Sequence record: NC_070990.1
Strand: one strand, 5' to 3'
DNA length: 64,000 bases
Source: Escherichia phage MN03
The first letter of the stretch is position 1. Each line of letters opens with the position of its first letter. Position numbers and translations under genes: made by a program. The notes under the pieces are model-generated. The model was not told where the DNA came from. It ran no database searches and saw only the letters and a list, made by a program, of their open reading frames with translations. Positions 46,040 through 57,183 of the stretch are shown one piece after another.

Positions 46040-47884
46040 TTAGTGTGTGTGCATCCAGTTAAGTCCAATCTGACAATCAGAAGCCAGAGGGCATTCCATG
46101 TTCAAATACTCACCAGCCTTCTTAACACAAAGCTCGGTGTGCTCTTTGAGTTTCTGTACATCATTACGGTTCACTGAGAATTGACCTTCATCGTGCATAT
46201 CAATTACCTTAGCACAACGAACCTTATCTTTCTCAATCCACTTGTTAAGGAACATCATAGCATATTTCATAACAACAGCACCAGCACATTGCAGGAGTGT
46301 GTTAAGGGCTTTATGAACCATAACCTTACCAGTGGCATCCCGTCTCATTGTAATCTTACGACCATCAACTCCAATCAAGTATCCTTGAGCAGCTTTCTCT
46401 GTCATACGATCAATGAGGATTGCAATACATGGGTTCTCTGCTAAGAAACGTGCTCGCATCACTGAACCTTCGTCAGCCCCACCACCTACAATTGAACCAA
46501 GCTTAGCGTCACCAGCACCATAGTTGAATGCGTAGATAAACGTCTTAGCGTTGTCACGAGTAGGAAGACCAGCAAGTTTCTGGTTGTGGGAGTGGATATC
46601 ACCTTCAAGGAGAATATCACGATACATAATAGCAGAAGCTAAACCACGTTCTGCCAGAGCTTTCTTAGCTGGATTGTTCTCTTCGATTGCCTCAGCAAGC
46701 ATATCCCTACACTCTTTAATGAGGTAGTGAGCGAGCATACGAAGTTCAAGCCCAGAACCATCATACCCTAAGAATACTTCTTTACCAGCGGGTATGTAAT
46801 ATTTGTAAGCACCTACAGGTTTGTCTTTCTTCCCCGGTTTACCTTTCTCATAAATTACGTTAGTACCTTTTCGTATATAACAACCATCAGGAACAACGTT
46901 AGTAATAACGAAAGGACGAGAATGATCACTGTCTGAGTTATAGTCAGACTCAAACAAACTGCGACACTCGTGACCAAACAAACCACGGGAGGGAATATTA
47001 ACCACGATACGATGTTTGAATCGAAAAGTCGGCGTAGCGCAGCTGTTAGCTTCTGCCGAAAGTTTACCATCTTCTCGCTCCTTTGCTATGAGTCCACTGA
47101 TAAGACCTAGCCTGTGAGCCGCCACAACGCGTCTCTTAAGCAAACTTCCGACACTCCCTAGCTCACCCCCTAACCCTTCTTCAAGAGTCTCCTCGAGGTT
47201 TGTAGGAGCTGTAGGCCACTTGTTTGATGTGGCTAGTGCTTTCTTAATCTCATCAAACGTTACAGGATTACGGCGATTAGGGTTTAATCCCAAACCAAAC
47301 ACGTAAGCCTTCATGTAATTCTTAGTCTTAAACCTGAAATGCTTTTCTAAGAACTTCTTAATATCAGCGTCAACCATCTCAGCTGTCTGCTTCTGCTTAG
47401 CATTGCCTCGCATCCAAGCAGTATACCATGCTTGGTATGTTCCATACTTTCTCATATCTTTCTTAATTTCGAAAGTATTCCAAGGCTTCTTAGATACGTT
47501 AAACTCTGGAGGAAGAAAGCCCTCATCCATAAGAGCTTCTTTAACTCGTGCATCTTTCGATGGGTCAAAGTCTACGTATTCGACACAGGTGAATGCTCCA
47601 CCAATATCTTCTCTCTTCAGCCCAACCCTATCACAATAGGCTTGAGGCCACTTCTGTAAAGCTCCAGACTTCTTAAATGGCTTCATGTAAGTAGAGCCAT
47701 CTAATCTCATCTTAGGTAAGAGAGGAATCAACTCTCTGTCAATATTAACAATAATCTCTTTAAGGAGGTGAACATACCACCGAGCATTTCTTCGGTTGAA
47801 ACTCACTCCGTGCTTTGCTTGCTTAGAGATTATATCAGCGACAGTCATCTCTGTCAAAAATGGAAGAGCGTCCGGGTTGCTCAC
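46040..47884 (-). CDS. DNA polymerase, family A, polymerase domain; no exonuclease motifs in its N-terminal region (614 aa, GTG start)
   Basis: Motif A GYDGSGLELRMLAHY, motif B RDNAKTFIYAFNYGAG, motif C VIDMHDEG; AAGGAG SD before GTG. Confidence 0.8.
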   Translation of the reverse strand: MSNPDALPFLTEMTVADIISKQAKHGVSFNRRNARWYVHLLKEIIVNIDRELIPLLPKMRLDGSTYMKPFKKSGALQKWPQAYCDRVGLKREDIGGAFTCVEYVDFDPSKDARVKEALMDEGFLPPEFNVSKKPWNTFEIKKDMRKYGTYQAWYTAWMRGNAKQKQTAEMVDADIKKFLEKHFRFKTKNYMKAYVFGLGLNPNRRNPVTFDEIKKALATSNKWPTAPTNLEETLEEGLGGELGSVGSLLKRRVVAAHRLGLISGLIAKEREDGKLSAEANSCATPTFRFKHRIVVNIPSRGLFGHECRSLFESDYNSDSDHSRPFVITNVVPDGCYIRKGTNVIYEKGKPGKKDKPVGAYKYYIPAGKEVFLGYDGSGLELRMLAHYLIKECRDMLAEAIEENNPAKKALAERGLASAIMYRDILLEGDIHSHNQKLAGLPTRDNAKTFIYAFNYGAGDAKLGSIVGGGADEGSVMRARFLAENPCIAILIDRMTEKAAQGYLIGVDGRKITMRRDATGKVMVHKALNTLLQCAGAVVMKYAMMFLNKWIEKDKVRCAKVIDMHDEGQFSVNRNDVQKLKEHTELCVKKAGEYLNMECPLASDCQIGLNWMHTH

Positions 47885-47900
47885 TTTATACTCCTTTAAA

Positions 47901-48323
47901 TTATTGGTAAAGTAAATCTGTAAATGCTTGGTTATCTTCTACTACATTCAACATGGTAGCTTCATCACTATAAGCCCTAACCGTCCCGTTGACAACTGTC
48001 CAAGGAGGAGGTGGAGGTGGTGCATGGTTAGCCCTAGCTTCACGAGGTTGCTCTCGTACTAAATGAGCCACAACCCTCTGATTAGCAACTTCTTCTCTTT
48101 CTCTGATAGCTCTCTGAATGTAGGCCAGCTTCATGCCCCAAGCTTCTTCAAACTCTTGAGGGTGTTTATCACTGATAACCACATACTGACGTTCAGGAAT
48201 ACCAGAGCGAATTTCTGATAATAATTCATGGAACAAATCCAGTTCATGTTCAGTGAGATTCATTTCGATATCATCCCACTTGAGAACTAAGAAACGGTTT
48301 GGATATCTAGCTGGTAATGGCAT
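47901..48323 (-). CDS. Hypothetical protein with poly-Pro tract (140 aa)
   Basis: ORF track. Confidence 0.45.
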   Translation of the reverse strand: MPLPARYPNRFLVLKWDDIEMNLTEHELDLFHELLSEIRSGIPERQYVVISDKHPQEFEEAWGMKLAYIQRAIREREEVANQRVVAHLVREQPREARANHAPPPPPPWTVVNGTVRAYSDEATMLNVVEDNQAFTDLLYQ

Positions 48324-48325
48324 CC

Positions 48326-48483
48326 TACTCCACCTCTACTTCAATGTAAGTTCTCTCGCCAACATCGTCTTTTAAGACCCATGACTTGGCATCTTCTTCC
48401 GACTTAAAAGCTTTCACAACGCTGTATCCGCCTTCCCATTCATCGCCGAACCAGCGCTGTCCTACGTAAATGTATTCTTTCAT
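48326..48483 (-). CDS. Small hypothetical protein (52 aa), not in ORF track
   Basis: ATG at 48483 with AGAGG SD; MKEYIYVGQRWFGDEWEGGY... Confidence 0.3.
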
Positions 48484-55301: not shown

Positions 55302-55310
55302 TCTTATTCC

Positions 55311-56624
55311 TTAGTTATTTGTTTCCATGTCAAAAGAGATTCCACGACCCGCTTCATCGGCAAACCGAACTGTACGGGTTTGAGGTTCTAATACTTCAGG
55401 GTTGTTAGCAATAAAGCGATCAGCGAGACTATCTCCTAAATCTTGTTCCATACCTTCATCAGTCCAGATAACACGAGAAGGGGCGTTGATATCACCAACA
55501 GCAAAACCCTGACCAGAGAACTGACGTGCGCTAACAGTTAAGCCGTTTGGTCGACCACGAGAAGGACTAGCCATCCATCTCTCCATAGAATCACTTGTGA
55601 TACCAAGAGCTTCTTCAAAAGATGTTCTACGAGTAGGGCTTACTCTTCGTGACTCTTGTGCTCGACGCATTGCAGGGGCTACAAACACCCCTTCAATTGC
55701 ATTGTGTCGGTTAGGCTCCTCTTCTCGACCAAGCAGATCACCACCCGTGTTAGTCGTTAGGTTTGTTAACCCTTCAGACCAATACGCACGAATCTGACCA
55801 GACCCGTGAACGCTTGACATTAACAGAATCTCTTCATAAGGGATTCCAAAGAATAGACTCATGTCTCGGTTAACACAATATTGAGCACTTGTTGTATCCT
55901 CAATAAGAGCAACCTGACCTCGTTCGTTGACTAGTTGGCTAACTGGTTGAGGTGTGGGAAGATATCGAGTTTGGGCCATGTATTGATGAGCAACCGATGG
56001 AGATGAAAACCTCAATACCTGAGAATTGGGCCACTTCTTGTGGACATATCGGATTTCACGACTAGAAACAACCACTGGACAAGGGGCGGTCATAGCCAAA
56101 TACCCATGGTTGGTCATGAACAAGTTATCAATAGTCATCGCACCACGGCACATCATAGGGAAATTATCCAACACCTCTTCAATAGAAGTAGGATAGTTAA
56201 ACATGAATTGAATGCGGGTTCCATTCCACTGAAATTCAATAATATCAGTGAATGTTAATTGAGAACTCCCAGCATAGGACTCGTTTGTAGCCTCAGCAAG
56301 AAGAGATGAATACTCAATATCTTGTGACTCAAGCCATTCCTTCACGTTACTTTCAATCTCCCGTCCAAGCATTTGCCATCGCTCAGTTGGGACGAAAGTA
56401 TTTTGAGTTCTTGGTGTTTGTCCTCTGACAATAAAGATATCAATGTCATGTGGGGCTATATTATTAAGCACAGCATCACGAATAGCCCCACCAGTAATGA
56501 TAGGACAAATACCGTCTGGAATCAAGTTGTTGTCAATTAATTGTTCAATGAAGTGACGACCAACAGTAATATCGGGTTGTTGAGCAACCTTATCTTCAAT
56601 TCGGTTAATCGGGATAACAATCAT
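55311..56624 (-). CDS. Pol-beta-superfamily nucleotidyltransferase with CCA-adding / poly(A)-polymerase-type head domain, plus ~250-aa Arg/Ser-rich C-terminal region
   Basis: IITGGAIRDAVLNNIAPHDIDIFIV matches the GG.(V/I)RD...D.D head motif of class II tRNA nucleotidyltransferases; start at 56624 (ORF track 56681). Confidence 0.55.
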   Translation of the reverse strand: MIVIPINRIEDKVAQQPDITVGRHFIEQLIDNNLIPDGICPIITGGAIRDAVLNNIAPHDIDIFIVRGQTPRTQNTFVPTERWQMLGREIESNVKEWLESQDIEYSSLLAEATNESYAGSSQLTFTDIIEFQWNGTRIQFMFNYPTSIEEVLDNFPMMCRGAMTIDNLFMTNHGYLAMTAPCPVVVSSREIRYVHKKWPNSQVLRFSSPSVAHQYMAQTRYLPTPQPVSQLVNERGQVALIEDTTSAQYCVNRDMSLFFGIPYEEILLMSSVHGSGQIRAYWSEGLTNLTTNTGGDLLGREEEPNRHNAIEGVFVAPAMRRAQESRRVSPTRRTSFEEALGITSDSMERWMASPSRGRPNGLTVSARQFSGQGFAVGDINAPSRVIWTDEGMEQDLGDSLADRFIANNPEVLEPQTRTVRFADEAGRGISFDMETNN

Positions 56625-56625
56625 T

Positions 56626-57183
56626 TTACATTTTCCAATATAATGAAGGTGGGTCGTAAGGGTCAAATCCCGTGAGTTCACACAAGAAAAGATAAACCTT
56701 AACAGTTAAGTTAACGTCCTGTTCACAATAAGTAAACATATCTTCAGTGAAAGCATCCCATGCTTCCTCTTGCTCACCGTAGTCACCTTTAAGTTCCCCT
56801 AAGAACTCACCCCATTGCTTCAAGCCGTGACCTCTTGGGCCACGTCTAGGGTCGCCTTTCGGATACTCAGGACTGTCACCAATACGATCAGGTTTAAGAT
56901 ATCGACTAAGACATAAAGTGTCAAAGACGTTAAAATTATATTTAATCAAAGAAGGATACATCTTTTTCAGAGCAGGTAAGTCGAAGTCAATAATATTATG
57001 ACCCACTAGTACATCTGCTTCTGTAAGTTTACGAATCCCGTCTTCAATTTGGTGAGGCCGATAGCCCCACCTTTCACCAGTTTCAACATCAAAGATATAA
57101 ATACACCATACTTTAGTTATGTCATCGTATAGTGCATTACTCTCGATATCGAATGCAAACACTTTCTTCTTTTTCTTTACCAC
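56626..57183 (-). CDS. DnaQ-like 3'-5' exonuclease (185 aa)
   Basis: FAFDIESN (Exo I), [11 protein letters not shown] (Exo II), YCEQDV (Exo III). Confidence 0.75.

Follow-up and report, generated by a model that had tools for sequence, protein, structure and literature searches.

The polymerase and exonuclease genes

The 64,000-nucleotide stretch of Escherichia phage MN03 that we analysed (sequence record NC_070990.1; hereafter, the window) carries, between positions 46040 and 58967, the genes for a family A DNA polymerase and for a 3'-5' exonuclease, encoded apart from each other. Upon comparing this 12.9-kb region with published genomes, we found 121 matching phage records, including phiEc_1, SkaterBoy_Bas90, SU10, NJ01 and 172-1, and the identity to published Kuravirus genomes was 93-98% in the best-matching records. 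By its sequence, the window belongs to Kuravirus, i.e., to the phiEco32-like E. coli podophages (Gordonclarkvirinae). In the list of open reading frames (ORFs), the minus strand carries every gene of the region. Along this strand, a T7 gp4-like bifunctional primase-helicase of 596 aa (57177..58967; Pfam DnaB_C at residues 311-486 and a weak Toprim_2 match) is followed by a predicted stand-alone 3'-5' proofreading exonuclease subunit of 185 aa (56626..57183; Pfam, hhalign and PHROG), an intervening block of 8,741 bp with ~24 genes on the same strand (47885..56625; ORF list and Pfam), and a 614-aa polymerase subunit that by Pfam, hhalign and Foldseek consists solely of the T7-type family A polymerase domain (46040..47884). 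The orthologues of the primase-helicase in Bas90, SU10 and Privateer are labelled DNA primase/helicase. An earlier note on this DNA had placed the exonuclease just downstream of the primase-helicase and ~9 kb from the polymerase, and both statements agree with what we measured: the GTG start of the exonuclease, preceded by GGAG, shares 7 nt with the stop of the primase-helicase (CCGTGGTAA), and 8,741 bp separate the exonuclease stop from the polymerase start.

The polymerase ORF is the one that the note had described, a 614-aa protein with motifs A, B and C. Its GTG start lies six bases past AGGAG, Pfam DNA_pol_A (PF00476) spans residues 361-611, and the catalytic residues of all three motifs were invariant in 63 homologues: in motif A (D-x-S-x-x-E), D375 (within YDGSGLELR and aligned with T7 D475), E380 and R382; in motif B (R-x3-K-x3-Y), R443, K447 and Y451, within the string RDNAKTFIY that T7 shares, the kuravirus enzyme likewise having Tyr at the position equivalent to T7 Y526; and in motif C, H564-D565-E566. 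A sequence search of the PDB returned T7 gp5 as by far the top match (E 1.2e-32), and hhalign aligned residues 4-614 collinearly with T7 gp5 206-704 (probability 100%, E 4.6e-57). The AlphaFold2 model of the protein had a predicted local distance difference test score (pLDDT) of 92.1, and its best 27 Foldseek matches in the PDB were all T7 gp5, with E values down to 1e-26; the mapping of domains onto T7 rests on hhalign, since the Foldseek output carries no aligned residue ranges. These comparisons identify the protein as an intact T7-type family A polymerase domain that lacks an exonuclease domain.

The absence of Exo motifs from the polymerase N-terminus, which the note had also reported, was evident in each of the searches that we made. 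A hidden Markov model (HMM) of the exonuclease family gave no match at E <= 1 in the window polymerase or in 113 other polymerase homologues; the same HMM does detect the exonuclease domain of T7 gp5, at E 3e-36, as well as that of each of six fused relatives, at E <= 1e-46. The comparison of the exonuclease profile with the polymerase profile yielded a probability of just 1.3%, and sensitive alignment, which the note had named as a possible refutation, revealed no exonuclease catalytic domain in the polymerase N-terminus. Judged by sequence, the 3'-5' exonuclease domain is thus absent from the polymerase chain and encoded apart, at 56626..57183.

The suggestion that the N-terminal ~300 residues of the polymerase might have another role did not hold up. 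Because residues 4-614 are collinear with gp5 206-704, these ~300 residues are predicted to be an ordinary palm and thumb part of a T7-type domain, corresponding to gp5 206 to ~440 and comprising the N-terminal palm helices, the thumb and the equivalent of the thioredoxin-binding loop, for which the alignment (~57-135 versus gp5 ~258-363) is gapped and of low confidence. The polymerase is ~115 residues longer than gp5 206-704, and this surplus consists of insertions within the polymerase domain, not of an N-terminal module. The first insertion is helical, has ~70 aa (~137-205) and is without a T7 counterpart; the second is beta-rich (~321-370) and lies directly before motif A; the third is a helix (~390-415) past motif A. 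All three were found throughout the clade.

The 185-aa protein matches Pfam DNA_pol_A_exo1 (PF01612) and, as the note had proposed, carries all three Exo motifs. Exo I (D-x-E) is formed by D12 and E14, aligned with T7 D5 and E7; Exo II (N-x2-3-(F/Y)-D) reads H62-N63-I-I-D-F-D68, with N63 and D68 invariant; and Exo III (Y-x3-D) reads Y152-C-E-Q-D156, with Y152 conserved at >= 90%. The four acidic residues D12, E14, D68 and D156 were invariant in 27-31 exonuclease homologues, down to ~33% identity. In a phmmer search of the PDB, T7 gp5 was the sole match (residues 3-178, E 1.5e-12), and hhalign placed the exonuclease family on T7 gp5 residues 2-189 (E 1.1e-26). The AlphaFold2 model (pLDDT 92.8) has an RNase H-like fold with a query-normalised template modelling (TM) score of 0.6-0.75 to the T7 gp5 exonuclease domain; its best 27 Foldseek matches were all T7 gp5, and ExoI, TREX and RNase T appeared too, ranked lower. 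The PHROG label for the protein is "DNA polymerase exonuclease subunit." Taken together, these results make the 185-aa protein a predicted orthologue of the exonuclease domain of T7 gp5, and none of its catalytic residues is missing.

The note had called this exonuclease DnaQ-like, a description that stands at the level of the DEDD superfamily and not below it. DnaQ, the epsilon subunit, has the Exo III motif H-x4-D (DEDDh). The window protein has Y-x3-D at Exo III, and no DnaQ chain came up at E <= 1 when the PDB was searched by sequence. By its Exo III motif, the exonuclease is of the DEDDy, PolA type, its kinship with DnaQ being that of the DEDD superfamily only.

A divided gene and its order in related phages

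Laid end to end, the two proteins tile T7 gp5 (2-189 and 206-704) and leave uncovered only the 16-residue linker between its domains. A BLASTP comparison of the exonuclease-polymerase concatenate with gp5 was collinear, with an identity of 27-33%, and on the PHROG 17 ("DNA polymerase") profile the exonuclease occupies positions 667-826, followed by the polymerase at 836-1233. We read the two proteins, from these alignments, as halves of a single ancestral gene that was cut at the domain linker. The halves have diverged in parallel: identity between the window and Bruynoghevirus PSA16 is 39% for the polymerase and 33% for the exonuclease. When 104 polymerase sequences were placed in a neighbour-joining tree, with T7 gp5 as the root and without bootstrap or other support values, all of the exonuclease-less polymerases formed one clade, with six fused polymerases as its sister. 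The most parsimonious reading of the sequences would be a single old fission followed by the accretion of genes into the gap.

The order of primase-helicase, exonuclease, intervening genes and polymerase was the same in Bas90, SU10, Proteus phage Privateer, PSA16 and a 47-kb metagenomic phage (L010), with a gap of varying size. In the kuraviruses Bas90 and SU10 the gap is as in the window, with 24 and 23 annotated genes, respectively; it measures 5.6 kb with 16 genes in Privateer, 1.9 kb with 7 genes in PSA16, and 1.4 kb with 5 genes in the metagenomic phage. The exonuclease gene overlaps the end of the primase/helicase gene in PSA16 and L010 and begins 10 nt after it in Privateer. On a 119-kb contig (L009), no exonuclease was present within 10 kb upstream of the polymerase, the stretch examined. 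A fused relative (L007, 618 aa, ~43% identical) has no gap, its order being primase-helicase, ligase and then exonuclease-polymerase. In T7, gene 4 is followed by gene 5; the exonuclease beside the primase-helicase has retained this ancestral gene 4-gene 5 place. The split is conserved in kuraviruses and LUZ24-like phages as well as in Privateer, and the gap ranges from 1.4 kb to >10 kb.

An intron, intein or trans-splicing bridge between the halves was considered and rejected: ~24 ordinary genes intervene, and each of the two ORFs has its own ribosome-binding site and its own start and stop codons. Some kuraviruses do carry group I intron-like inserts, located inside the polymerase gene and not at the exonuclease/polymerase junction. 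In Escherichia phage pEC-N1203-2Af.1 (L008), a ~600-bp insert (2223-2796) interrupts the polymerase gene near motif C. The insert has an ORF for a 131-aa HNH_3 endonuclease and matches group I introns in Rfam below threshold (28.7 bits, E 1.3e-4). A second insertion site in the gene is suggested by other relatives, whose polymerase fragments have ~450 aa (P0014-P0017, P0080 and others). The polymerase gene of the window is uninterrupted.

Probable fission, proposed reassembly and rival explanations

We consider it likely, at a probability of roughly 80%, that an old fission at the linker split a T7 gp5-type polymerase and that its halves reassemble, with the exonuclease editing for the polymerase. 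Gene fission at the exonuclease/polymerase linker would have divided an ancestral gp5-type gene. The exonuclease half would have kept its place beside the primase-helicase gene, with translational coupling to it, and the polymerase half would have come to lie 8.7 kb downstream on the same strand as nucleotide-metabolism genes and small genes accumulated in between. The two products would then rejoin non-covalently as a gp5-like heterodimer, in which the 185-aa subunit would excise nucleotides that the 614-aa polymerase has misincorporated at the 3' end, both subunits working alongside the primase-helicase in a T7-like replisome. The gp5 orthology, the predicted fold, the invariant residues and the gene order all point to proofreading by a separate protein, as the earlier note had put forward. 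In AlphaFold predictions for the split PolAs of S-SBP1-like cyanophages, the two products superpose on the unsplit enzyme, and the stability of PolAs is reported to depend on the exonuclease domain (PMC10201439).

Three points weigh against this reading. First, the association of the two kuravirus proteins and proofreading in trans are steps that we infer. Second, the tree behind the single fission is a neighbour-joining tree without bootstrap support. Third, the two genes are far apart, and two candidate middle-promoter elements as well as terminator-like hairpins lie between them, so that equal expression of the halves is not guaranteed. The phiEco32 gp36-dependent middle/late promoters have the consensus tAATGTAtA (PMC8948821). 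An exact match to this element, TAATGTATA, occurs at 49752..49760 (minus strand) in the intergenic space after PhoH, and a match with one mismatch, AAATGTATA, occurs at 54119..54127 (minus strand), likewise between genes, past the exonuclease and ahead of the polymerase. Matches to the element across the window numbered 23 versus 19.5 expected, which is not above chance; we list 54119-54127 as a candidate promoter because of its intergenic position, the match count itself being at chance. The counts from the sigma-70 and terminator scans were also at chance level, and we use them descriptively. As far as these sequence elements go, the polymerase may get middle-class transcription that the exonuclease and the primase-helicase do not.

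A rival explanation, which we regard as improbable, is that the exonuclease is delivered mainly via the primase-helicase and acts at the level of the replisome, or serves chiefly as a structural stabiliser, instead of forming a stable 1:1 gp5-like heterodimer. The 7-nt overlap of its start with the stop of the helicase gene would fit such a link, as would the overlap in PSA16 and L010 and the 10-nt spacing in Privateer, and the position of the polymerase downstream of extra promoter-like elements. However, a place next to gene 4 is no more than the gene order inherited from the T7-type ancestor, and both the gp5-like tiling and the published model of the S-SBP1 complex (PMC10201439) favour docking on the polymerase.

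It is decidedly unlikely that the 185-aa exonuclease is an autonomous enzyme, engaged in host DNA degradation, recombination or end processing, while the polymerase replicates without proofreading. Such a role could explain the 8.7-kb separation with its possible internal promoters and terminators, and stand-alone DEDD exonucleases with other roles do exist, ExoI, TREX and RNase T being among the lower fold matches. Yet the nearest kin of the protein, by sequence and by fold, is only the T7 gp5 proofreading domain; its gene occurs together with that of a polymerase which lacks the exonuclease and belongs to the same lineage, with the gp4/gp5 order kept; the split sits exactly at the domain linker; and PolA polymerase domains reportedly need the exonuclease domain for stability (PMC10201439). 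The strict gp5 affinity and the conserved gene order disfavour both the autonomous nuclease and delivery by the helicase. That the polymerase N-terminus conceals a decayed exonuclease, or else a distinct domain that serves some other function, is hardly credible, even with ~115 surplus residues and a ~70-aa helical insertion without T7 counterpart to accommodate it, since the alignment of residues 4-614 with gp5 206-704 runs over the full length and a hidden exonuclease domain is excluded by the family HMM, the profile-profile comparison and the start of the alignment at gp5 206.

Returning to fission with reassembly, one could extend it by supposing that the spacing of the halves is functional. 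With the exonuclease coupled to the primase-helicase and the polymerase behind two candidate gp36-type promoters, the exonuclease:polymerase ratio could change. This ratio, and hence fidelity, would then shift during infection, and a phage thioredoxin would join the halves as the third, processivity subunit of a three-gene holoenzyme. We think this extension improbable as well. The thioredoxin gene lies between the halves (52293..52622, minus strand; Pfam Thioredoxin, E 1.7e-13). The thioredoxin of Privateer was proposed as a polymerase processivity factor by analogy with T7 (PMC7881722), and, by the same analogy, we speculate that the window thioredoxin is a candidate processivity partner, as host thioredoxin is for T7 gp5. 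A Dps/ferritin-like protein is also encoded between the halves (53194-53805, minus strand), and Privateer has both a thioredoxin and a Dps/ferritin-like protein too.

A perfect sigma-70 consensus (TTGACA-17-TATAAT, extended by a -10 TG) occurs just once in the 64-kb window, at 47829-47857 (minus strand). It falls within the 5'-most 56 nt of the polymerase ORF, where codons 10-19 encode L-T-E-M-T-V-A-D-I-I, and a transcript from it would be without the polymerase start codon. The site also occurs in Bas90, SU10 and pEC-N1203-2Af.1; at least one perfect sigma-70 site appeared in 6/100 shuffles of the window.

At its C-terminus (57177-57230, minus strand), the primase-helicase has an acidic tail with a terminal Trp. 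The T7 gp4 tail is acidic and ends in Phe, and it contacts gp5. The tail of the window protein, acidic and with a terminal aromatic residue, is reminiscent of that of gp4.

Known split polymerases and neighbouring genes

The split arrangement is already known, both in the literature (2012, 2023) and in annotation vocabularies (PHROGs, GenBank). The polymerase and the gp74 exonuclease of phiEco32 form an orthologous pair with the same order and spacing as in the window, and so do the pairs of SU10, NJ01, YF01 and Bas90; with respect to these phiEco32-type kuraviruses we found no difference of substance, the window being another isolate of the genus. The Privateer record cites the phiEco32 entries DPOL_BPE32 and EXO74_BPE32 (the latter for gp072), and the name "DNA polymerase exonuclease subunit" is already used in GenBank/RefSeq for Bas90_0071 and Privateer gp072, the partner gene being labelled "DNA polymerase." A DNA polymerase with separate 5'-3' and 3'-5' exonuclease subunits was described in 2023 as common to all kuravirus-like phages and relatives (PMC9965538). 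The LUZ24-like Pseudomonas phages (Bruynoghevirus LUZ24, PaP3, tf and PSA16) and Privateer belong to the same split clade, at a polymerase identity of 39-47%. Their gaps, as given above for PSA16 and Privateer, are shorter than the 8.7 kb with ~24 genes of the window, and Bruynoghevirus polymerases have ~545 aa versus 614 aa.

A T7-type PolA on two gene products was likewise described for S-SBP1-like cyanopodoviruses (Czernecki et al. 2023, PMC10201439), where the splitting of exonuclease and polymerase was presented as a first for PolAs. A 2012 paper on phage tf (PMC3517423) describes the split exonuclease/polymerase of the LUZ24 group and credits a 2008 report for phiEco32, and this 2012 description of LUZ24 precedes the 2023 claim, which calls for a correction in the literature. 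The cyanophage split is recent and arose by frameshift, with genes that overlap or adjoin, whereas the halves in the window lie kilobases apart and their split is common to several genera and families. The kuravirus/LUZ24 fission appears to be older, more widespread and physically more dispersed than the cyanophage split, and is probably independent of it. It would provide a natural experiment on the ability of a family A polymerase domain to fold and function when its exonuclease domain is not covalently attached.

Among solved structures, T7 gp5 is the nearest to both halves and has matching catalytic motifs, and the primase-helicase encoded next to the exonuclease resembles gp4. Unlike the window proteins, gp5 is a single 704-aa chain; the window polymerase has the three insertions and an apparently shorter equivalent of the thioredoxin-binding loop, and the window phage encodes its own thioredoxin. 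The same principle, with polymerase and proofreading exonuclease on separate chains, is seen in the alpha (DnaE) and epsilon (DnaQ) subunits of E. coli Pol III, which differs in that its polymerase is of family C instead of A and epsilon is DEDDh whereas the window exonuclease is DEDDy.

A further gene, for a 280-aa protein (38176..39018, minus strand), resembles 5'-3' exonucleases of the FEN / T7 gp6 type by a weak Pfam 5_3_exonuc_N match (26.3 bits, below the cut-off), and the syntenic gene in Bas90 is annotated "exonuclease." It would be a third nuclease/polymerase function on a separate gene, in line with the separate 5'-3' exonuclease subunit described for the group (PMC9965538).

The block at 47885..56625 holds a CCA-adding-like nucleotidyltransferase, a dCTP deaminase, the Dps/ferritin-like protein, the thioredoxin, ThyX, an NAD-ligase Ia domain and PhoH, besides many small ORFs. 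Directly downstream of the exonuclease gene lies an ORF at 55311-56681 (minus strand; 437-456 aa depending on the start codon chosen) that resembles the head domain of poly(A) polymerase / CCA-adding enzymes only weakly (17.7 bits, under the cut-off) and has no domain match in its C-terminal two thirds; its relatives are annotated "nucleotidyltransferase." The 107-aa product of 50885-51208 (minus strand) consists of the N-terminal Ia (NAD+-binding) domain of an NAD-dependent DNA ligase alone (Pfam Nlig-Ia, E 2.7e-35). It is named "DNA ligase" in public records, lacks the adenylation and OB domains, and could be a modulator of host LigA. Two sets of tandem paralogues, both on the minus strand and without a Pfam match, were also observed in the block: three ORFs of 65-69 aa at 54152-54767, ending ...VHY, ...IYY and ...VYY, and two ORFs of 84-94 aa at 48487-49027, ending ...FPRG and ...FPKGV.

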